Part shown: positions 6,990-29,649 of the stretch, in pieces
How the letters are laid out: each line of letters begins with the position of its first letter
Numbering within the stretch: the stretch's first letter is position 1
Origin: Candidatus Woesearchaeota archaeon CG10_big_fil_rev_8_21_14_0_10_44_13
GTDB lineage: Archaea; Nanobdellota; Nanobdellia; Woesearchaeales; UBA12501
NCBI GenBank assembly: GCA_002762985.1
Contig: PCXZ01000018.1
Location: 741 to 64,740, forward strand
Direction of reading: 5' to 3'
Length of the DNA stretch: 64,000 bases
Position numbers and translations under genes: made by a program
Notes under the pieces: model-generated
Seen by the model: only the letters and a program-made list of their open reading frames with translations
Database searches by the model: none
What the model was told of the DNA's origin: nothing

Positions 6990-7150
6990 ATTTATGCATC
7001 AAAATCAACATTCCATTCGCCTCCAAGGATGAACTTCCTGATATGGCTCATGCCCTCTTCTTTGATTTGCTGAATTACCCCACTACAACCGCTCCCCAGC
7101 CCAGTACGTTGTAGGAGGGGGACGGGGGGGACCTTGGTCCCCCCGTAGAT
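6990..7150 (-). repeat. Intergenic repeat family, copy F (inverted orientation)
   Basis: Reverse complement matches core ...GAAGAGGGCATGAGCCATATCAGGAAGTT...GGAGGCGAATGGAATGTTGATTTTG and hairpin module TAGGAGGGGGACGGGGGGGACC..GGTCCCCCC. Confidence 0.7.
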
Positions 7151-20157: not shown

Positions 20158-21606
20158 TTACCCTCCTTTTTTGTCCAATTTCAAATCATCATCCTGATTG
20201 TAGTGCAGATCGTATCTCAATGCCAATTCTGCCTTCTGGAGCTCTGAACCTATGTCCAAAGCATGGCTCATCTGAGAGATGACATGTTTCCTGTCAAGCA
20301 TCCTGAATATCTCTGCTGCGTTCCTGCCCCTGAACTCGTCCAGCTTCTTGCCTTCCTGGCTGTAATGCGAGATCACAATCTCTTTCTTCTCCTTATCCAC
20401 CTTTATCACAACATTGCCTCTTGGGTCCCATTCATGCTCCTTGCCCTTGTAATATATGTCAAGGATCTCCTGAACTTCTTTCATGCTCTCTTCATATATA
20501 TGGGCAGAAGCCGAGAATATTGTCATAGAGCCCATCTTTATCCCTGTCTCTTCAGAAACGTGCTTCTGGAGTTTCCTCAGCGCAAAGGCGTTCTGCGGCC
20601 ATCCCCTGTACATGTCATGGCTCCTGAAATATGCATTCATGAACAGCCTGTTGTCCTGCACGATGAAATTGACAAGGTCAAGGCATGGCGCATGCTCGTT
20701 ATACACATCCTTGCCAACATCCCATGTGACTGCTATGGCTCTCCTTGTGAAAGGCTCTTTCTTCAGCTTTTCTATGACTGACCTTATCTGGTCTACGCCT
20801 TCATGATCCATTAGCCTCTGGCCATAGGTGTAGTTTATGCCCTGGATTTTGTTGGCAGTCAGGACTTGGGGGTAATATGCCTCAAGCTCTTTTTTCGTGA
20901 AATTGAAGAAATCGTACCATCTCGGCTCTTCGGGGTCTTCGTCAGTTATTACAGCGACGATATTGAGCAGCTCTTTCTGCGTAGTGCTGTGGTGGCTTTT
21001 CTTTATGTGGCCGAACCTCATTATCTTGCTAAGGAGGATTATCCATGCCATCCCGACTGTCTTCGCCCTTATCTTGAATACAGAGCTGTCTGTAGGGAAT
21101 CTTTCAGGCAGCTCAAGCTTTGGCTCTGGGAAAAGCCTTGGCTTCCCAAAAGGCTTCCTGCCCTTGTCAATAGAACCTATCCTTTCTGCTATCTTCTTCG
21201 GATCGATCACTCCGATCATATTTATTATCTCAACATTCTTCCTGAATTCTGCAACCGCTTCATCAGGTATCTCTTTCTCTATGTGTGCGTTTTCAACTCC
21301 GAGAATGTTATGCCTGCTGTCTATGCCGTTTTTTGCCAGGCTTAAAAGCGCTTCACCGCTCCCTGACTTGTCTGTGCCGCAAAGGATTATGTATCTTATC
21401 GCAGGATTCGCGAATATGTTCCTTATTATGGCATTTATGCCTGCCTTCGAGTACAATTGGCCGATTGTAGAGAAAGAATTCCTGTCAAGGCCTTTCGCTA
21501 TCATCTCTTTCTCAGTCCACAAGGTGATTATGCTGATATTGCTGTCCTTATCACCGACTATAAGATTCTCAGAAAAATAAATAGGCCATCCCTCCTTCAT
21601 CTGCAT
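20158..21606 (-). CDS. thyA: Thymidylate synthase (ThyA family) with an ~170-aa N-terminal extension of unknown function
   Basis: C-terminal TS domain with RRAIAVTWD and HAPC nucleophile motifs; 482 aa in total. Confidence 0.75.
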   Translation of the reverse strand: MQMKEGWPIYFSENLIVGDKDSNISIITLWTEKEMIAKGLDRNSFSTIGQLYSKAGINAIIRNIFANPAIRYIILCGTDKSGSGEALLSLAKNGIDSRHNILGVENAHIEKEIPDEAVAEFRKNVEIINMIGVIDPKKIAERIGSIDKGRKPFGKPRLFPEPKLELPERFPTDSSVFKIRAKTVGMAWIILLSKIMRFGHIKKSHHSTTQKELLNIVAVITDEDPEEPRWYDFFNFTKKELEAYYPQVLTANKIQGINYTYGQRLMDHEGVDQIRSVIEKLKKEPFTRRAIAVTWDVGKDVYNEHAPCLDLVNFIVQDNRLFMNAYFRSHDMYRGWPQNAFALRKLQKHVSEETGIKMGSMTIFSASAHIYEESMKEVQEILDIYYKGKEHEWDPRGNVVIKVDKEKKEIVISHYSQEGKKLDEFRGRNAAEIFRMLDRKHVISQMSHALDIGSELQKAELALRYDLHYNQDDDLKLDKKGG

Positions 21607-21609
21607 TCC

Positions 21610-22308
21610 TCATCTGAATATATCCTTTGATTTTTCCCATACTATCCTTTGTATGTCCCCTATCTGCATTATCCTTCCTTCTTTTACGCATTCGATCATG
21701 ATCCATCGCTCTTTTTTTGCTATCTCCATGTAGGCCTGCTCTGTGTCCTTCAGGTGGGAAGTGTCTGCTTCGTGGATATCCTTCCTGTTGCCTCTTTTTG
21801 TTATCAATGTCTGGGCGATCTCAGCAGGGACATGCAGGAAAATAACCGCATCAGGCCTCGGTATCATGTTCTGGCTGTATTCAAGGTCATCTATCCATTC
21901 CATGAACCTCTTCCTTTCCCCTGGATCCTTTATCTTTGATGCCTGATGGCCTTTGTTCGATTGCTGGTACCTATTGGCGATTATGATATCGCCTTCTTCA
22001 AGCCATCTTTTCATCATGGGTGCTGCATCAACCCTGTCCTCTGCATAGAATCTTGCGGCATCATACGGGCTTACGTCCTCTACTTTGCCGAATTTCCCGG
22101 CAAGATAATCCTCTACTTTCTTTGCGCATGGCCTGCCGTACTGCGGGAAATCGATTGTTTTTACCTTGAAGCCTTCTTTCTCAAGCTTTTCCACAAGAAG
22201 CTTTGATTGGGTAGCCTTGCCAGAGCCGTCAGTGCCTTCGATTACGATAAGTTTTCCTTTATGCTCCGATTTTCCTCTTTTAGGCATGTGTACCCCCAAG
22301 CCAAGCAA
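21610..22308 (-). CDS. tmk: Thymidylate kinase
   Basis: LIVIEGTDGSGKATQ P-loop; likely start at the internal Met (MPKRGK, ~22287). Confidence 0.85.
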   Translation of the reverse strand: MLGLGVHMPKRGKSEHKGKLIVIEGTDGSGKATQSKLLVEKLEKEGFKVKTIDFPQYGRPCAKKVEDYLAGKFGKVEDVSPYDAARFYAEDRVDAAPMMKRWLEEGDIIIANRYQQSNKGHQASKIKDPGERKRFMEWIDDLEYSQNMIPRPDAVIFLHVPAEIAQTLITKRGNRKDIHEADTSHLKDTEQAYMEIAKKERWIMIECVKEGRIMQIGDIQRIVWEKSKDIFR

Positions 22309-22401
22309 ATTATCAGGTTTTTATATAGTTTGTGGTGGTAAAAGTTTAAGGTTGTTTTGTTTATAGTGCTATTATTGGCAGAAGGAATTTTTTTACATAG
22401 A

Positions 22402-22513
22402 ACGCCGCCATCACCGCGGCTCGACGATCTCCTCACGTCGTTCGGAGCCCTACTCGGCACCCCGGAGGGGCCGACCCCCGCCTCGCCGAGCGCAGTGGCG
22501 GCGTGCGCAGGAC
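22402..22513 (+). other. GC-rich structured island, candidate cis-regulatory or small RNA upstream of the ACS gene
   Basis: ~110 nt of >70% GC in a ~40% GC genome; 9-bp terminal helix (ACGCCGCCA / TGGCGGCGT) enclosing at least two internal hairpins. Confidence 0.3.
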
Positions 22514-22566
22514 AAAACAAAAAAATATATAAACCAACCAATAAAATAATGTTATCAGGGGGTTTT

Positions 22567-24564
22567 ATGGACGTCGTAAAGACTATATTCGAAGGAGCGA
22601 AAAAACTGCTTGCATTGGCAGAGAAAAGCCTTAAAGAAGGTGATGTGAAGCCTTTTTCTGATACTGAGTACAATCTTCCTGTAGTATATGCGCTGTTCGG
22701 CAGGGAGATAAAGGGAAAAGAGGATGCTGCTGAGATTCTCGATAAGATAAGGAAAAAGCTAGAGAAAGAGCAGACATTGGAGAATGCTCTAAAGGCAGGG
22801 GTTTATTCTTATGCCCTGCTGGAGCTTGTTGAAGCCGTAAAATATGCTAAAGAGAATAAGACCAATTTCATCCCTGACACTGTGATAAGGAGCCTGGGCC
22901 TGCCTCTGGTCAATGGGACGATCCCTGGCGTCGCTGTTGTTGTCGGAAAGGCAAAAGACGAAGAGGAGATGAAAAAAGTCCTTGAGGAAGCTGTCTCACA
23001 TGCGCTACTTGTCCTTGTTGTCGGAGAATGCTGCAATCAGTATGATAAGACAAAATTTACTCCTGAGAAAAATGTCATCCCTATAGGCGCAGAACCCACA
23101 AACCTTGCCCACGTCATGAATATTGTGTTTAGGATACCGATGATCTTCGCAAAGATACCTCCTGGAGAGAAAAAAGAGATAGAAGAGTATATAACGGAGA
23201 GGGTTCCTGCTTTTGTGGTGGTTCTCGGAGAGATTGATGAGGTTGTTTTAGCTTTGGGAGCCGGCTGTTTAAGGTTAGGATTTCCAATCACTACAACAAA
23301 TGAAGCTGGAAAAGCAGTGGAACAAATCTTTGTAGGCCCTGCAGAAAAACTTATTGATGAAGGTGTAAAAAGAAAGGGGATTAAATCGAAGAAACTGGAC
23401 ATAAGACTGCCTATGGGCTATGGGAACCTTTATGTCGGGGAAACGATAAGGAAAGAGGATATGGCCCTGGAATTCGGCGGGAAGAAGTCAAAGGCATTCG
23501 AGCTTGTCCAGAAAGATGATTCCATAGAAGACGGTAAAGTCGAGATCATCGGCAAGGACATTGATGGCCTTGCAGAGAATGCGAATGTGGGTTTGATAGT
23601 CAGTGTGGCAGGAGACTTTGAGAAGGATGCAGAGCCTGTGTTCGAGAGGATGATACATGAGCACCTCAATAAGATAGAGGGATTCATGCATCTCGCTTCA
23701 AGGGATATCATATGGTGCAGGTTCTCCAATGAGGCCAAGAAGAAAGGGCTGAAGCTGAAGAATCTGGGAGAAGTCCTTGTGAGATCGATGAAACAGGAAT
23801 TCCCATTGATAGAGAAGGCTTCAGCGACAATAATAACAGATGATGATGAGTTCAGCAAGCAGCTTGCGCATGCGAAACATGTCTACAAGGAGAGGGATGA
23901 CAGGATAAAAGGCCTTACAGAGGAGAATGTGGATATGTTCTATGGCTGCACTATGTGCCAGAGCTTCGCCCCTAATCATGTATGTGTCATAACACCCGAG
24001 AGGATTGCGCTGTGCGGCGCGATAACATGGCTGGATGCAAAGACTGCGATGAAGATAAATCCTTCTGGCATGAATTTTGAGATACCTAAGGGAAGCATCA
24101 TTGACAATGAGAAGGGGGAATATGAAGGTGTGAATAAGATCGTGAAGCAGAAATCCCACGGCAAGATCGACCGTTTCCATCTCCATTCGATATTCGGCTT
24201 CCCGCATACAAGCTGCGGCTGTTTTGAAGCGATCGCGTTCTATATCCCTGAAGTCGACGGCATAGGCATTGTGCACCGTGATTTCAAGGGAGAAACCCCT
24301 ATCGGGATGAAATTTTCCACTCTTGCAGGAATGACTGGAGGAGGGCTGCAGTCAGAAGGGCTGATCGGAGTGGGAACTGCTTATGTTGCATCTAAGAAAG
24401 CGTTCCTGGGCCAGGGCGGCAGGGGGAAGATAGTTTGGCTGCCGAAGGAGCTGAAAGAGAGGTATAAGGATGATATTCCTGCTGAGATTTTTGGGAAGAT
24501 TGCGAGTGAGGAGGATGTGAAGGATATAAATGAGCTGCAAAAATGGGTTGATGGAAAGAAATAG
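22567..24564 (+). CDS. acsB: Acetyl-CoA synthase catalytic subunit (AcsB/CdhC family), bacterial-length
   Basis: C-x2-C-x8-C-x9-C ... (+67) C-G-C spacing identical to the A-cluster ligands of Moorella AcsB; YVGETIRKEDMALEFGG middle-domain motif; alternative start at 22549. Confidence 0.8.
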   Translation: MDVVKTIFEGAKKLLALAEKSLKEGDVKPFSDTEYNLPVVYALFGREIKGKEDAAEILDKIRKKLEKEQTLENALKAGVYSYALLELVEAVKYAKENKTNFIPDTVIRSLGLPLVNGTIPGVAVVVGKAKDEEEMKKVLEEAVSHALLVLVVGECCNQYDKTKFTPEKNVIPIGAEPTNLAHVMNIVFRIPMIFAKIPPGEKKEIEEYITERVPAFVVVLGEIDEVVLALGAGCLRLGFPITTTNEAGKAVEQIFVGPAEKLIDEGVKRKGIKSKKLDIRLPMGYGNLYVGETIRKEDMALEFGGKKSKAFELVQKDDSIEDGKVEIIGKDIDGLAENANVGLIVSVAGDFEKDAEPVFERMIHEHLNKIEGFMHLASRDIIWCRFSNEAKKKGLKLKNLGEVLVRSMKQEFPLIEKASATIITDDDEFSKQLAHAKHVYKERDDRIKGLTEENVDMFYGCTMCQSFAPNHVCVITPERIALCGAITWLDAKTAMKINPSGMNFEIPKGSIIDNEKGEYEGVNKIVKQKSHGKIDRFHLHSIFGFPHTSCGCFEAIAFYIPEVDGIGIVHRDFKGETPIGMKFSTLAGMTGGGLQSEGLIGVGTAYVASKKAFLGQGGRGKIVWLPKELKERYKDDIPAEIFGKIASEEDVKDINELQKWVDGKK

Positions 24565-24600
24565 TTATGTAATTTTAACCTGACATTTCAAAAATATTTG

Positions 24601-24800
24601 TGGGGAAACTACGTTTCCCCTTACCCCCTTCCTACATTGTGCTGGGAAGGGGAGCAAAAGCAGGCATTCAGGTGAGTTGTTTAAGGCAAAGAAGAGGGCA
24701 TGAGGCATATAGGGAAGTTGTGTGATGGAGCCGAATGGAATGTTGTTTTTGAAAAAAACAACTAAGAAAACCGAAGGTTTTCTGTTGAGGAAAAAATAGT
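24601..24800 (+). repeat. Intergenic repeat family, copy C (between acsB and cooC)
   Basis: TGGGGAAACTACGTTTCCCCTTACCCCCTTCCT hairpin module; CATGAGGCATATAGGGAAGTTGTGTGATGGAGCCGAATGG core; second hairpin GTTGTTTTTGAAAAAAACAAC. Confidence 0.7.
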
Positions 24801-24823
24801 TTTATGGGGAAAAGATTATTAAA

Positions 24824-25564
24824 ATGATAGTAGCAATCTCAGGCAAAGGCGGCGTAGGCAAGACAGTCTTCTCAGCTTTGACCATAAAATACCTCACGTC
24901 AAAAGGGAAGAAAGTCCTTGCTGTCGATGCAGACCCTGATGCGAACCTTGCAGAGGCCCTCGGTGTTGAAGTCGAGAACAGCATCGGCGGGATAAGGGAG
25001 GAATTGCAGAAGATCCAGCACAAGATACCTGGCGGACTGACAAAAGAGGCTTTCCTGCAGAGGAAGATACAGGAGATAATAAGCGAACATAAGGGTTTCG
25101 ACCTTCTTGTTATGGGGCGTGCAGAAGGCCAGGGCTGCTATTGCTGGGTCAACAACATATTGAGAGAAAACATAGACAAATTATCTGCCAATTATGATTT
25201 CACAATAATCGACTGTGAAGCGGGGCTTGAGCATCTGTCAAGAAGGACGACAAAAGATGTTGATATTATGTTCGTAGTGCTTGACCAATCAAGGCTTTCC
25301 CTTAACACTGCATTAAGGATAAAAGAGCTGGCAAAAGAGGTTGATATAAATTTCAAGAAGCTTTTCATAGTGCAGAACAAGGGCCAGAACAAGAACTTTG
25401 AGAAAGAGGCAGGGAAGGAAGGAATCAAGGTCATTGGAGTCCTGCCTGAAGACAATGAGATCGTGAGGCTGTACAGCGAGGGGAAAGCCATAACTGGCAT
25501 AAGCGAGAAGGCAAATGCTTATTATTCTGTCAAACAGGTTTGGGAGAACCAAAATATTTATTAA
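24824..25564 (+). CDS. cooC: CooC/AcsF-type Ni-insertion ATPase (MinD/ParA family)
   Basis: Deviant Walker A SGKGGVGKT and GQGCYCW CxC nickel-binding motif; 246 aa. Confidence 0.8.
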   Translation: MIVAISGKGGVGKTVFSALTIKYLTSKGKKVLAVDADPDANLAEALGVEVENSIGGIREELQKIQHKIPGGLTKEAFLQRKIQEIISEHKGFDLLVMGRAEGQGCYCWVNNILRENIDKLSANYDFTIIDCEAGLEHLSRRTTKDVDIMFVVLDQSRLSLNTALRIKELAKEVDINFKKLFIVQNKGQNKNFEKEAGKEGIKVIGVLPEDNEIVRLYSEGKAITGISEKANAYYSVKQVWENQNIY

Positions 25565-25603
25565 CTCTCCCCGAATCCTCCCTCTCATGAAAGGGGGTTC
25601 AAT

Positions 25604-26212
25604 ATGAGGATTTCTGCAGTCATAGAAGCTGATACTATAGAGAGCGCCCACCCCAAGGTCCTGGAATTGATCCATAATGAGGGGGATGAGCACAGCGACG
25701 AGTATGGGGCCAAGACAAGGGAAGTCTTCAACCTAATGATAAAGGTGAAGAACCCGACAGAGAAGATGATTCCGCATGCTTTCCACATGACGAAGATGGA
25801 ATTGGAGGAGTATGCCCTCAAATATTACCTCAGCCCGAAAGTCGAAGGCGAAGTCTACACCTATGGGGAAAGGATGCTTGATTTCAAAGGGGATGGGGAA
25901 TACAACCAGATCCAGCATATCATCGACAAGCTCAAGAAGAATGCAAACTCAAGGAGAGCTGTTGTTGTCTTATGGGATCCCACAAGGGATGGGACAAAGA
26001 TTGAGCATCCTCCGTGCATGGACATGCTGGTGTATAACCTCAGGAACGGGAAGCTCCATTGCACTTCTGTTTTCAGGAGCAATGACATGCTGAGGGCATG
26101 GCCGGCCAATGCATTCGGGATAACAAGATTGCAGGAATTCATCGCAGGAGAGATAGGATGCGAAGTCGGCACATTGACGACAATGTCAATAAGCGCGCAT
26201 ATTTATCTGTGA
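25604..26212 (+). CDS. thyA: Thymidylate synthase, short archaeal type (ThyA family)
   Basis: SRRAVVVLWD and EHPPCMD nucleophile motifs; 202 aa; paralog of the 20158..21606 ORF. Confidence 0.75.
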   Translation: MRISAVIEADTIESAHPKVLELIHNEGDEHSDEYGAKTREVFNLMIKVKNPTEKMIPHAFHMTKMELEEYALKYYLSPKVEGEVYTYGERMLDFKGDGEYNQIQHIIDKLKKNANSRRAVVVLWDPTRDGTKIEHPPCMDMLVYNLRNGKLHCTSVFRSNDMLRAWPANAFGITRLQEFIAGEIGCEVGTLTTMSISAHIYL

Positions 26213-26220
26213 GGATATCC

Positions 26221-27231
26221 ATGAAAACTAAAACGATATTGATTTTGGCAATTCTATGCATCTTCATTGTTTCATGCAGCGAGCAGCCTGGACAGCCTGA
26301 AGAAACAGGAGCCAAAGACACTAAAGCAGTTCAAACAATCCAGGAGGAAGCCAAAGCGCCTGAAATAACAAGAGAAAGCAAAATCCCTTCAGATGCAGTT
26401 AAGGTTACTCCTCAGACAGACATCAATCCTCCAAAATCAAAATCAGACGAATACGATGACCCTATTCCTTTATCCTCGGCAATCAACAGCGCAGGAGCTG
26501 AAGATTCCCCATTCATGATGCCAGATGGAAACACATTATATCTCTTCTTCACGCCCGATGTAAGGGTCCCTGTTGAAAAACAGCTTCTTGACGGTGTCAC
26601 AGGAATTTGGGTTTCAAAAAAAGTGATTGGAGAATGGGGCAAACCTGAAAGAGTTGTGCTCCAGGACCCTAAAAAGCTTGCGCTGGACGGCTGCGAGTTC
26701 GTCCTCGGCAGCACGATGTGGTTCTGCTCTGCACGGGAAGGCTATGCAGGCATAAACTGGTTCACAGCAGAATTCAAGGATGGGAAATGGCAGGATTGGA
26801 AGAGTGCGGATTTTAACCCTGATCATAAAGTAGGAGAGCTGCATATCTCAAATGACGGCAATGAGCTTTATTATCATTCAGACAGGCCCGGCGGCAAAGG
26901 CGGCCTGGACATCTGGGTGTCAAAAAAGGTCAATGGGGAATGGCAGCAGCCGGAAAATGTTGAGGCAGTCAACTCAGAGAGGGATGATGGGTGGCCTGCA
27001 TTGAACCCTGAGGAGAATGAGCTTTGGATTTACAGGGATTACGGGCTGTTGAGGTCAAAGAAAATCAATGGAGAATGGCAGACGCCTGAACCGATGTTCT
27101 CGCCGCTTGCGGGCGAAGCGACACTGGACAATGAAGGGAATGTCTATTTTGTCCATCATTATTTCAAGGACGATAAGATGATAGAAGCGGATATTTACGT
27201 TGCGCATAAAAAAGCGGTAAAACGGCGGTAA
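26221..27231 (+). CDS. Lipoprotein with PD40/TolB-like beta-propeller repeats
   Basis: MKTKTILILAILCIFIVSCSEQ lipobox; repeated DGN.LYF/YHSDRPGGKGG.DIWVS units. Confidence 0.55.
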   Translation: MKTKTILILAILCIFIVSCSEQPGQPEETGAKDTKAVQTIQEEAKAPEITRESKIPSDAVKVTPQTDINPPKSKSDEYDDPIPLSSAINSAGAEDSPFMMPDGNTLYLFFTPDVRVPVEKQLLDGVTGIWVSKKVIGEWGKPERVVLQDPKKLALDGCEFVLGSTMWFCSAREGYAGINWFTAEFKDGKWQDWKSADFNPDHKVGELHISNDGNELYYHSDRPGGKGGLDIWVSKKVNGEWQQPENVEAVNSERDDGWPALNPEENELWIYRDYGLLRSKKINGEWQTPEPMFSPLAGEATLDNEGNVYFVHHYFKDDKMIEADIYVAHKKAVKRR

Positions 27232-27241
27232 GGTGAATAGG

Positions 27242-27712
27242 ATGAAAGCAAAAATCATGGTTTTGGCCTTTATTGTGATGTTCGCATTGAGCGGCTGCGG
27301 AAGCACAAAGTGGGATATCTTCAAGGACGGGAAATTCAGCATAAGCTATCCTGTGATGAATATGGGCAAAGACCTGAATGAGAACCTGATGCTGCAGACA
27401 GGCAATTCCAGATGCATGCTCCTGGTGAACAAGTACCCTGGGCAGTCAGACGTGAAGGGATTCGCAAACTACATAAAAGACCTGCTGACAAAAGAACCTG
27501 CAACGACAATCACAAGCGAGGACATCAATGACTCAGAAGCCAATTTTGAACTGAGGGTCATCTACAGCAACAAGCCGTACATCTCAAAAGTCAAGTTAGT
27601 GTCGTGCGAAGGTGCAATGTACAATATAATGATGAACTGCCAGGAAAACGGCTATGAAAAGAATGCCCAGGATGTGGAATCCACACTAAGCTCGGTAAAA
27701 TGCAGTGAATGA
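27242..27712 (+). CDS. Lipoprotein, function unknown
   Basis: MKAKIMVLAFIVMFALSGCGS lipobox. Confidence 0.5.
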   Translation: MKAKIMVLAFIVMFALSGCGSTKWDIFKDGKFSISYPVMNMGKDLNENLMLQTGNSRCMLLVNKYPGQSDVKGFANYIKDLLTKEPATTITSEDINDSEANFELRVIYSNKPYISKVKLVSCEGAMYNIMMNCQENGYEKNAQDVESTLSSVKCSE

Positions 27713-27716
27713 GTGA

Positions 27717-28484
27717 ATGATAAACAAGACAAGGATAGGCGATATCGAAATCGGAGGGGAATCGAGATTCTTCAGGTTCGAAGAGAAAGATGATTTCAGG
27801 ATGGCATTCGCCCTTGCATATGATGAGCATAACCCAAAAATCATCGAAGAGAATGATGTGGATGCTGTCGCTATAACTATAAGAAGTGATAATCCTGAGG
27901 AAGCGATAAAGCAGGTCGAGGATTTCAGGAGTAGATGCAAGAAGCCGTTGATAATCTACACCCAGGACAACCCTAACACCGACCATATAATCATAGATGC
28001 TATAGCAAGGAGATTCCCCGGCCAGCATTTCCTTTTCTGCTCAGCGACAGTCAAGAACAAGGCGGCAGATATAGCGAATTCCGCCCTCAAGTTCGGCCAC
28101 AATGTAAGCGCTTATACGACATTGGATCCTGGCGGAGCCATCTCCCTTAACAAAGACCTCTTGAAGACGGGCCTGAAGCCTAAGCAGATCGTCATCGACC
28201 CGCTGACATCATTCATAGGGTATGGCATTGAATACTCTATAAGCGCGATGGAGAGGATAAGGCTGGATGCATTAGCCACAGACGAGACATTGAGGATGCC
28301 TATTCTTGCAGACCTGTCCGCTGTAAACCAGCTGAGAGAGGCCGATACGAAGGAAAAACAGCTCCATTGGGAGACCATGACTGCAGTCGCATTGATCGCT
28401 GCAGGCGCTGACCTGTTCATATTCAGGCACATAGAATCGCTGAGGAAAGTGAAGGGATTCGCAGAAAAGATGAAGAAGAGATAA
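27717..28484 (+). CDS. acsD: Corrinoid iron-sulfur protein small subunit (AcsD/CdhD family)
   Basis: IVIDPLTSFIGYGIEYSISAMERIRLDAL and WETMTAVALIAAGADLFIFRH match AcsD motifs recalled from Moorella. Confidence 0.7.
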   Translation: MINKTRIGDIEIGGESRFFRFEEKDDFRMAFALAYDEHNPKIIEENDVDAVAITIRSDNPEEAIKQVEDFRSRCKKPLIIYTQDNPNTDHIIIDAIARRFPGQHFLFCSATVKNKAADIANSALKFGHNVSAYTTLDPGGAISLNKDLLKTGLKPKQIVIDPLTSFIGYGIEYSISAMERIRLDALATDETLRMPILADLSAVNQLREADTKEKQLHWETMTAVALIAAGADLFIFRHIESLRKVKGFAEKMKKR

Positions 28485-28521
28485 TGCACACATGAGATAA
28501 ACAGCCGAGGTAAAAAACAAT

Positions 28522-29649
28522 ATGAAACTGAGCCCATTCAACCTTTATCCGCATCTTCCGAAGAAGAACTGCAGGGAATGCGGGGAATCCACATGCCTGG
28601 CTTTCGCCGTGAAGCTGCTGAACAGGGAAGCAGAGCTTGAGAAATGCCCGCATGTCAATGATGAACAGAAATCAAAGCTTAAGGCCATGTTCGAGCCGCC
28701 TGTGAAAGAGATAAGATACAAAGGATATAAGATGGGGGGAGAAGAGGTGATTCACAGGCATGAGCTGACATTCCATAATCTTCCGCTAATTGCATCGAAA
28801 AACAGGCCGGATATATTTTTTGAGAGGGCTGGCAAGAGGATGTCTGTTGAGCTTAAAGAGGCTCAGGATGACATCGGCGGGATCATATGGTGCAAAGAGA
28901 AGGCAAGAGCAGATGAATCCATAGAGAAGGCAAAAAAGGATGATCTGCCCGTGATAATGAGGGTGAATTCGATAGAAGAGGCAAAATCATTCTCAACAAG
29001 ATATGACAAGATCATGGTTGAATTCCACGGCTCTCCTGCAGAGGTCTTCAGGAATCTCAAGGATTACAGGGAGAGGGCGATAAAGGGTGAGCAGGGATGC
29101 AATCTTCCGACGATGTTCCTGGCTGATGATGAGGCAGAAGCGGCTTATGCATTGATGAGGTATGCGAATATTGTCGTGATAAACAACGAGGAAAAGGAAT
29201 TCCTTGAGCCATTCATGTATCTGCGCCAGGCGATATTCTCTGACCCGAGGATCCCTGCAAAAGTGGATGCTATACTCTACAAGATAGGGACTCCTGATGA
29301 GAACAGCCCTATCTTCGTCGTAGGAAATTATGCCCTGACATATTACACTGTCTCAGGCGACATAAACTCCCAGAAGATAAACTCCTATCTCATCGCATTC
29401 GACACTGAGGGTTTGAGCGTCTGGACAGCAGTCGCTGCCAATAAGTTCCTCCCTTCAAAGATAAGAGAGGTAATTGAAAACTCAAGGCTTTCTGAGAGGG
29501 TGAAGAACAGGACTCTGGTCATCCCGGGCTTCGCAGCGCCCTTAAAGGGAGCGATTGCAGAGGAAACCGGATGGAAGGTGGTTGTAGGGCCTGAGGACAG
29601 CAGGGAGATAGGGAATTTTATAGAGGAGATGAAAAGAGAGAAGCAATGA
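28522..29649 (+). CDS. acsC: Corrinoid iron-sulfur protein large subunit (AcsC/CdhE family), shortened
   Basis: N-terminal C-x2-C-x4-C-x16-C [4Fe-4S] motif (CRECGESTC...C); 375 aa. Confidence 0.7.
   Translation: MKLSPFNLYPHLPKKNCRECGESTCLAFAVKLLNREAELEKCPHVNDEQKSKLKAMFEPPVKEIRYKGYKMGGEEVIHRHELTFHNLPLIASKNRPDIFFERAGKRMSVELKEAQDDIGGIIWCKEKARADESIEKAKKDDLPVIMRVNSIEEAKSFSTRYDKIMVEFHGSPAEVFRNLKDYRERAIKGEQGCNLPTMFLADDEAEAAYALMRYANIVVINNEEKEFLEPFMYLRQAIFSDPRIPAKVDAILYKIGTPDENSPIFVVGNYALTYYTVSGDINSQKINSYLIAFDTEGLSVWTAVAANKFLPSKIREVIENSRLSERVKNRTLVIPGFAAPLKGAIAEETGWKVVVGPEDSREIGNFIEEMKREKQ

Follow-up and report, generated by a model that had tools for sequence, protein, structure and literature searches.

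The window analysed here is a 64-kb stretch from a Candidatus Woesearchaeota genome of the CG10 series, and our subject is a GC-rich island in it (22402-22504) that lies between two divergent genes. The XPD helicase of this host shows 100% identity to a deposited Candidatus Woesearchaeota CG10 protein. The gene upstream, on the minus strand, encodes thymidylate kinase (tmk; Pfam PF02223, E=1.4e-24), and the plus-strand open reading frame (ORF) downstream of the island encodes a bacterial-type AcsB, with cooC-like and cdhD/E-like genes further downstream. A preliminary description of the locus had taken the island for a structured RNA and had suggested that it could be a metal- or cofactor-sensing leader of acsB; as set out below, it belongs to a family of structured repeats dispersed among DPANN archaea. 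Its composition is as that description had it: GC content is 0.74 at 22400-22499 against a mean of 0.434 for the 64 kb, and 22402-22504 was the only stretch of the window to reach 0.70 in an 80-nt sliding scan.

Four AcsB proteins, those of the window and of three relatives found through exact-protein look-ups (loci L001, L002 and L003), share 78-84% mutual identity; scans of reference genomes and JGI metagenomes with peptide patterns revealed no close acsB relatives. In all four loci acsB is preceded by AAAAAA(A/C)TATATAAA, about 25-30 nt, GGGGG and ATG, and this conservation, together with the archaeal consensus, suggests that the TATATAAA blocks are promoter elements of acsB and tmk, at acsB a transcription factor B recognition element (BRE) with a TATA box. 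The putative acsB core promoter (22512-22533, plus strand) would consist of an A-rich stretch read as the BRE followed by TATATAAA at 22526-22533, and lies downstream of the island. Beyond it are a GGGGG motif resembling a Shine-Dalgarno (SD) sequence (22558-62) and the start codon (22567-69), both of which (22558-22569) are conserved in 4/4 loci. On the minus strand the putative tmk TATA box, again TATATAAA (22320-22327), is followed by GGGGG (22297-22293) and ATG (22287-22285). The island is therefore upstream of both inferred TATA boxes, between the divergent core promoters, and it lies on the acsB strand at a distance of 62 nt from the start codon. The two genes use one compact layout, TATATAAA, about 25-30 nt, GGGGG, 4-5 nt and ATG, at 22285-22335 and 22512-22569 of the window and at 1679-1795 of L003.

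From TTG 22357 onward one frame stays open across the island and on into acsB, and the public automatic call (P0001, 735 aa, window 22357-24564) renders the repeat as a Pro/Ala-rich AcsB N-terminus. However, the three closest relatives (81-84% identity) are proteins of 665-671 aa that start with MDV(V/I)KT at the equivalent of window 22567, and the start that they support in the window is ATG 22567 (665 aa). Because the relatives start at the ATG matching 22567, the island is non-coding, in agreement with the preliminary description, which had thought an AcsB N-terminus unlikely.

The helices named in that description are all present in the sequence: an outer 9-bp helix, here P1 (ACGCCGCCA 22402-22410 with TGGCGGCGT 22496-22504), a hairpin of CGACG (22422-22426) with CGTCG (22436-22440), a helix of CTCGGC (22453-22458) with GCCGAG (22485-22490), and a hairpin of CCCC (22460-63), GGA and GGGG (22467-70), all on the plus strand. 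Folding of 22395-22520 gave a minimum free energy (MFE) of -53.4 kcal/mol for the plus strand (z = -2.30), with 5/200 shuffled sequences folding equally well, and z = -1.1 for the minus strand; by itself the folding energy is unusual only mildly, a result that is suggestive but modest. ARAGORN found no tRNA or tmRNA in the window. Rfam 15 gave no match at gathering thresholds over the whole 64 kb and, at E up to 10 on 22250-22650, a single chance-level match (veev_FSE, E=6.4), so that no NiCo, cobalamin, tetrahydrofolate or other riboswitch model and no small RNA (sRNA) family matched. On these negatives tRNA, tRNA-Sec, intron-containing tRNA and 5S rRNA were rejected, in line with the earlier statement that the island does not fit tRNA or 5S architecture. 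H/ACA and C/D box sRNAs, the K-turn, the bulge-helix-bulge intron and integron attC were rejected on inspection by eye only, their defining motifs being absent or unconserved.

A family of structured repeats

One motif, CACCCCGRAGGGGCCRACCCC, is common to the window and L002, and CTA and a stem strand of 6 nt stand before it. A relaxed pattern, CTANNNNNNASCCCGNAGGGSSCNACCCC, searched for in a single genome of each species, gave at least 117 stretches. Nearly all of the matches listed came from assemblies labelled Woesearchaeota, Nanoarchaeota, Nanoarchaeia or Pacearchaeota; the others carried the deposited label 'uncultured Methanosarcinales' or, in a few cases, bacterial labels. A covariance model (R1) whose seed was 36 copies of other genomes, the window sequence not being included, gave 138 matches in 120 loci. 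In the window it matched 22412-22498 on the plus strand over the full length of the model, with 60.8 bits and E=1.7e-11, and since R1 had been built without the window, a match at this level means that the island is not a chance fold. The runner-up match scored 12.7 bits, and the island is thus the sole copy in the window. The second GC-richest spot of the window (0.65; 7069-7149, between two plus-strand ORFs) has two hairpins, CCCCACTACAAC...GTTGTAGGAGGGG and GGGGGGGACC-TTGG-TCCCCCC, but scored only 9.7 bits with R1 and so is not of the same family.

Several assemblies of roughly the 1-Mb class each have at least 6-13 copies, all intergenic, as is typical of repetitive extragenic palindromic (REP) sequences: at least 13 in JAZDID01, at least 10 in JBLKOQ01, at least 7 in CAZFPU01 and at least 6 in JANQNH01. 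The flanking genes are ordinary and unrelated (an HD-domain protein, MetE and others). Among ten flanking ORFs scanned against Pfam there was no transposase and no gene resembling a REP-associated tyrosine transposase (RAYT), and the ORFs between paired copies in L016, L036 and L051, considered as a possible autonomous parent between two copies, proved to be ordinary genes. Good matches on contigs deposited as Planctomycetales, Gammaproteobacteria and Thioploca were seen at L095 1872-1957, L113 1061-1150 and L028 1990-2072 (64.8, 68.4 and 91 bits) and, more weakly, at L050 (35.5 bits), and a much larger number bear the label 'uncultured Methanosarcinales'; such non-DPANN labels could reflect mis-binning, labelling or real spread beyond DPANN. 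The only two pattern matches on viral contigs, in phage contigs of 67-72% GC, look like chance.

The 36 copies align cleanly and define a three-way junction, in which a closing helix Z is followed by a one-base junction C, a hairpin X, the junction UA and a lobe Y that joins Z without a linker (type A). Helix Z has the consensus 5'-GGC-G-NNNGA with UCNNN-GCC-3' and a conserved bulged G. Hairpin X is variable, covaries and ranges from 13 to 55 nt across the family. Lobe Y begins with a stem of 6 bp and an A that is left unpaired; these are followed by the hairpin (C/G)CCC-GNA-GGG(G/C) and by a conserved strand without pairing, (G/C)CNA-CCCC-(C/A). Many copies also have the outer helix P1, the sequence of which varies from copy to copy while its complementarity is kept.

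Standard pairs made up 93.1% of the pair cells of the 36-copy alignment, as against 35-47% in slid controls, and compensatory changes were found in 22/28 pairs, five Z pairs having served to pick the seed sequences. In the model-fitted alignment of the 93 R1 matches at E up to 1e-7, pairing holds in 89.9% of cells and 24/27 pairs show compensatory change, so that covariation among homologous elements, which the preliminary description had left to be checked, is present. The outer pair of the CCCC/GGGG hairpin itself covaries (C-G 66, G-C 25), and the base after the downstream CCCC tends to track it, being C with C-G and A with G-C with the one exception of L041; this linkage could be a base triple or merely shared ancestry. 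Copies of one genome have a mean core identity of 75%, those of different genomes one of 70%, and a few pairs are near-identical; the copies are mostly old, yet pairing has been kept.

The kinds of pair bear on which strand, if either, is selected. Where selection acts on a structure in a single transcribed strand, G-U pairs are normally tolerated, whereas G-U and U-G together filled 20 of 2456 pair cells (0.8%), with no excess over A-C and C-A (69 cells, 2.8%), about half of which are probably explained by 34 non-standard cells at the Z-closing pair. Thus, the view that the island is structured RNA and not promoter DNA stands in part: it is a conserved three-way-junction element distinct from ordinary promoter DNA, but the pairs carry no RNA-type signal.

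In the window the whole type-A unit, including P1, occupies 22402-22504 and its core, the Z-X-Y junction, 22412-22498, on the plus strand. Its P1 arm is of the GCACGCCRCC subfamily, as in L008, L056, L091 and others. The 5' strand of Z (22412-22424, CACCGC-G-GCU-C-GA) pairs with the 3' strand at 22486-22497; G22418 is the conserved bulged G of the family, and A22424 opposes C22486, a variant shared by 34/92 copies. The junction base C22425 precedes hairpin X (22426-22450), in which CUCC 22429-32 pairs with GGAG 22444-47, and X is followed by the UA dinucleotide at 22451-22452, invariant in 36/36 seed copies, and by lobe Y (22453-22485), which carries the pattern CTANNNNNNASCCCGNAGGGSSCNACCCC. 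The Y stem pairs CUCGGC 22453-58 with GCCUCG 22480-85, with two pyrimidine mismatches that are common to about 40% of copies (39-40/92), and the lobe continues with A22459, the hairpin CCCC-GGA-GGGG at 22460-70 and the conserved unpaired strand CCGACCCCC at 22471-79. The three-way-junction layout first proposed was therefore right, but two of its helices are not those conserved in the family, which keeps the CUCC/GGAG hairpin X instead of CGACG/CGTCG and pairs CUCGGC with GCCUCG rather than with GCCGAG, the latter being part of Z. For the window copy the family fold (-33.5 kcal/mol) is less stable than an MFE fold like the one first proposed (-53.0 kcal/mol). Its score of 60.8 bits is below that of most other copies (70-93 bits), which fits a decaying unit.

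Doublets, permuted copies and an inserted element

Many copies occur as tail-to-tail inverted pairs that overlap by 2-3 nt (L009, L035, L040, L041, L046, L062, L085, L091, L108, L110, L120 and L002). The paired units are interleaved, in that the P1 3' arm of either copy serves as the Z strand of the other, and GGCGGCGTGCGA runs straight into the reversed Y lobe of the partner. Comparison with these doublets identified TGGCGGCGTGCGCA (22496-22509, plus strand) as the 3' arm of P1 together with the first ~13 nt of a would-be inverted partner, the remainder of which is absent; the window copy is thus a singleton with a 13-nt stub. The end at 22513 that had first been given to the island overshoots the unit, 22505-22509 being part of this stub.

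The ends of the window copy (ACGCCGCCA/TGGCGGCGT) have no terminal repeats of the IS6 type (GG tips, cTGTt and caaa motifs), and its flanks (...TACATAGA and GCGCAGGAC...) contain no direct repeat and so no target-site duplication. Similarly, no consistent target duplication was seen in 75 type-A singletons, in which bulges of the helix make the ends hard to place. A role as a bidirectional terminator was suggested by the A-runs 5' and T-runs 3' of the arms in many type-A copies, but the window copy has them reversed and convergent gene pairs are not enriched, and this idea was rejected.

About 25 loci carry a circularly permuted form, type B, which has the same Y lobe, UA junction and GACGG. 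Here the Z stem is of 5 bp, closed by A-U and capped by a loop; the unit ends in the X stem, whereas type A ends in Z, and the Z-to-X linker is 7-9 nt long as against 1 in type A. The ends are inverted repeats, for example GGCTCTGTTGCAAAT (L077) or GGCTCTGTAGAAAAT, with the GG tip and the cTGTt and caaa motifs that are terminal features of the IS6 family (PMC7986276), and they are flanked by direct repeats of 7-10 bp, such as GCCTATTTAG (L077), CTATGCTCT (L014) and TTAAAAAG (L061). [quoted passage not shown] Nine of the type-B loci are in the Woesearchaeota genome JBLKOQ01 (L007, L017, L024, L027, L037, L077, L079, L114 and L115), and others are L014, L026, L060, L061, L064, L068, L070, L083, L094, L118 and L119. 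The genes adjoining them are unrelated, and several look leaderless. Rfam, searched at E up to 10 with a type-B copy and with a top-scoring type-A copy, gave chance-level matches only.

A second element appears to interrupt the repeat at a fixed point. Five copies stop after GGGGGCAACCCC and continue as T(C/G)A(T/C)C(C/T)TT(G/A)CCCACAT... (left junctions: L036 3355-3495, L096, L084, L109 and L043), and in two further copies that end appears as its reverse complement, after which come GGGGCAACCCCC and what remains of the unit (right junctions: L023 at ~226, and L048). The ends of the insertion read TGACCTTTACCCACAT... or TCATCCTTGCCCACAT..., and the contigs break ~130 nt beyond the interruption. 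These junctions fit an insertion sequence with inverted ends that would insert into the GGGG-GCAA-CCCC hairpin of Y and, to judge from comparison across different contigs rather than from any one copy, may make an 11-bp duplication. In L036 and L043 a conserved protein C-terminus (...GNPGWQS(L/I)WEGWKFF...KKCG) reads toward the insertion junction.

The island at the acsB locus

The island is not a regular companion of acsB: two of the three relatives lack it, and the third has a doublet, so that the element is carried at 2/4 orthologous loci. In L003 tmk and acsB are divergent as in the window, but the spacer between them is 91 nt long as against 279 nt and has no GC-rich element, and the TATA boxes are ~30 nt apart as against ~200 nt. 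Alignment showed that the extra DNA of the window consists of a 64-nt AT-rich spacer between the tmk TATA box and the island (22338-22401), which has no counterpart in L003, and the island itself. L001 also has no element upstream of acsB, and its upstream neighbour is not tmk but a gene fragment starting MYKLTFEKRVWIVKQRLNGVPTNKIALAQK (L001 1-90), which implies that this lineage has seen more than one rearrangement of the DNA upstream of acsB. In L002 GC-rich sequence upstream of acsB reaches the end of the contig and forms an interleaved inverted doublet, the plus copy of which is cut by that end.

The gene itself is part of a cluster of the carbon monoxide dehydrogenase/acetyl-CoA synthase (CODH/ACS) type at 20158-29649 of this Woesearchaeota (DPANN) contig. 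Besides the 665-aa AcsB of bacterial type, the cluster encodes a CooC-like ATPase and two proteins of the CdhD family. Thymidylate-synthase-like genes are interspersed among these, and one of them carries a fusion to two further domains, an MtrA-like and a pterin-binding one. Among named proteins the best relative of this AcsB is that of Methanocaldococcus infernus (47% identity).

We consider it probable that the island is a lone unit of a dispersed, structured repeat of DPANN archaea, sited between two divergent core promoters, and not an acsB riboswitch. This reading builds on the membership of the island in the family, the covariation, copy number and strand neutrality of that family, the absence of the element from orthologous sites and its position relative to the promoter motifs. 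It supposes in addition that type A is, or has been, mobile, that the TATA boxes work as promoters and that the island has no regulatory effect. A unit consists of the closing helix Z, often lengthened by P1, the variable hairpin X and the conserved lobe Y (A-CCCC-GNA-GGGG-(G/C)CNA-CCCC), and the family behaves as REP/REPIN elements or MITEs do, being multi-copy, intergenic, found in either orientation and in interleaved inverted doublets, and patchy in presence. The window copy may then have landed, or been retained, in the one tolerant spot between the tmk and acsB core promoters, and would since have lost its doublet partner, gathered several mismatches and become somewhat decayed. At most it would space or insulate the two promoters; on the present sequence comparisons the acsB mRNA most likely does not include it, and it most likely senses no metal or cofactor.

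The family appears to be undescribed, in that full-text searches of the literature gave no account of it, only general MITE and REP papers and one MITE census, in which a Woesearchaea genome is reported to have one of the highest MITE densities in archaea (PMC11602168). By analogy, the repeats may work most like bacterial REP/REPIN elements and small structured MITEs. They resemble REPs, REPINs and BIMEs (bacterial interspersed mosaic elements) in being GC-rich, extragenic and present in many copies per genome, in the compensatory change that keeps the structure in old copies, in their inverted paired units and in being specific targets of insertion sequences. Bacterial REPs are mobilised by RAYT transposases, and no RAYT-like gene was found among the ten flanking ORFs. 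REPs are also simple bacterial hairpins of 20-40 nt, whereas the archaeal unit is a three-way junction of 85-130 nt with a conserved asymmetric lobe, and the doublets here are interleaved. In REPs conserved tetranucleotides flank the hairpin; here GACG and CTA(C/T) flank X, and their complements, CGTC and (G/A)TAG, are REP tags described in PMC3733652.

The likeness to MITEs of the IS6/IS26 family lies in the type-B terminal repeats and direct target repeats of 7-10 bp, and stops short of the window copy, which as a type-A unit has neither. Moreover, the outer arms of type A vary yet stay complementary, as a terminal repeat bound by a transposase would not, and no IS6 MITE is known whose body is a conserved three-way junction. 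Correia elements (Neisseria), RPE (Rickettsia) and ERIC are small, non-autonomous structured repeats that sometimes alter expression or RNA processing. They share with the archaeal repeat a strong secondary structure and insertion near promoters and gene ends, but belong to other phyla, are unrelated in sequence and have defined terminal repeats and target duplications.

Several observations weigh against the island being simply such a repeat. Old copies keep their pairing by compensatory change, and about 20 unpaired nucleotides are invariant across phyla, which suggests that the folded form is selected and would not be expected of a purely neutral relic. For type A neither a target-site duplication nor a terminal inverted repeat of conserved sequence nor a cognate transposase turned up, and for this reason its mobility is put forward here only conditionally. 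At type-B loci a TATA-like box lies outside the 5' end in 14/20 cases as against 2/20 at the other end; it is ~17-25 nt away and is found in 10/10 JBLKOQ01 copies, which hints at a link with transcription for type B, with target choice and selection both possible. Finally, the gene calls behind the context statistics are crude (longest ORFs). By these calls the type-A singletons comprise 16 sense and 18 antisense copies in tandem contexts, 12 divergent and 9 convergent, proportions that are the same as the background of intergenic types at these loci and show no strand preference.

We also weighed, as a rather unlikely alternative, the idea that the invariant core is an unrecognised functional nucleic-acid module of DPANN archaea, either a small ribozyme of a new class or a signal for RNA processing, carried by mobile DNA, or else a folded single strand that a novel recombinase would recognise. 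The candidate module would be the junction bases GA-C-GG and UA with the lobe A-CCCC-GNA-GGGG-(G/C)CNA-CCCC. If true, it would explain the survival of the core through circular permutation, the compensatory evolution in old copies and the targeting by an insertion sequence, and in the recombinase version the system would be an archaeal counterpart of REP-RAYT.

As RNA, the core could be a new ribozyme that cleaves itself or a signal for protein binding or processing, with possible activity of the window copy if transcribed; we hold this to be unlikely. Strong covariation, structure retained in old, diverged copies and the invariant unpaired C, UA, A, GNA and (G/C)CNA-CCCC across distant genomes speak for it, as does the orientation of type B to a TATA-like box. 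Hammerhead and twister ribozymes occur as natural circular permutations, and the two forms of the repeat, one ending in Z and the other in X, recall them, along with a multi-helix junction, invariant unpaired bases, association with mobile DNA and many copies per genome. No Rfam family matches, so that such a module would be new. Yet there is no Rfam ribozyme match at E up to 10, no recognisable catalytic core and no tolerance of G-U, and the resemblance to permuted ribozymes may serve as a lead only. Furthermore, the absence of strand bias relative to flanking genes, the rarity of G-U and the unrelated neighbours argue against a cis-regulatory RNA; the inverted doublets put the complement beside the sense copy, and the window copy is both mismatched and upstream of the two inferred promoters.

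A role at the level of DNA seems to us slightly less probable again. Here a folded single strand or cruciform would be recognised by an HUH-type or other enzyme, or the repeat would be a target for recombination or insertion, or would insulate promoters. Covariation restricted to Watson-Crick pairs suits both strands, and both orientations and interleaved inverted doublets occur. The insertion sequence enters the GGGG-GCAA-CCCC hairpin precisely, in at least five independent copies, the C-GNA-G triloop is a classic motif of very stable DNA mini-hairpins, and structure is retained in old copies. On the other side, no RAYT-like or other dedicated enzyme gene lies beside the copies examined, and the junction and loop bases are conserved on the plus strand without a known DNA-binding partner. 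This role overlaps with the reading of the island as a dispersed repeat, for which it might be the mobilisation mechanism.

That the island is a riboswitch or cis-regulatory leader of acsB, responding to nickel, cobalt, corrinoid or folate, we regard as very improbable. It does share the strand of acsB and precede the start codon by 62 nt, L002 also has a sense copy upstream of acsB, and a weak TATA-like sequence, TTTATAG at 22360-66, could in principle drive a long leader. The distribution and position of the element largely refute it, however: L001 and L003 are without it, no Rfam riboswitch matches at E up to 10, and elsewhere the element adjoins unrelated genes, sense and antisense alike. 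The conserved acsB TATA box is downstream of the island, no terminator or SD-sequestering helix is linked to it, and the SD motif and ATG lie 50-60 nt beyond, with the promoter between. Least credible of all is the island as an N-terminal extension of AcsB, for which the open frame and the 735-aa call are refuted by the starts of the relatives, by the absence of the stretch from L001 and L003 and by its being a copy of a non-coding repeat that occurs in both orientations.

Reading the island as a dispersed repeat removes a tempting false lead, in that nothing here speaks for a leader of the Woesearchaeal acsB operon that senses a metal or cofactor. In its place is a family of structured repeats that is abundant in DPANN archaea and apparently undescribed, with compensatory change, permuted forms, doublets and a targeted loop. 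Small-genome archaea that keep dozens of such elements raise the question that REPs raise in bacteria, of what maintains them, and the family offers a defined sequence and structure with which this can be tested.

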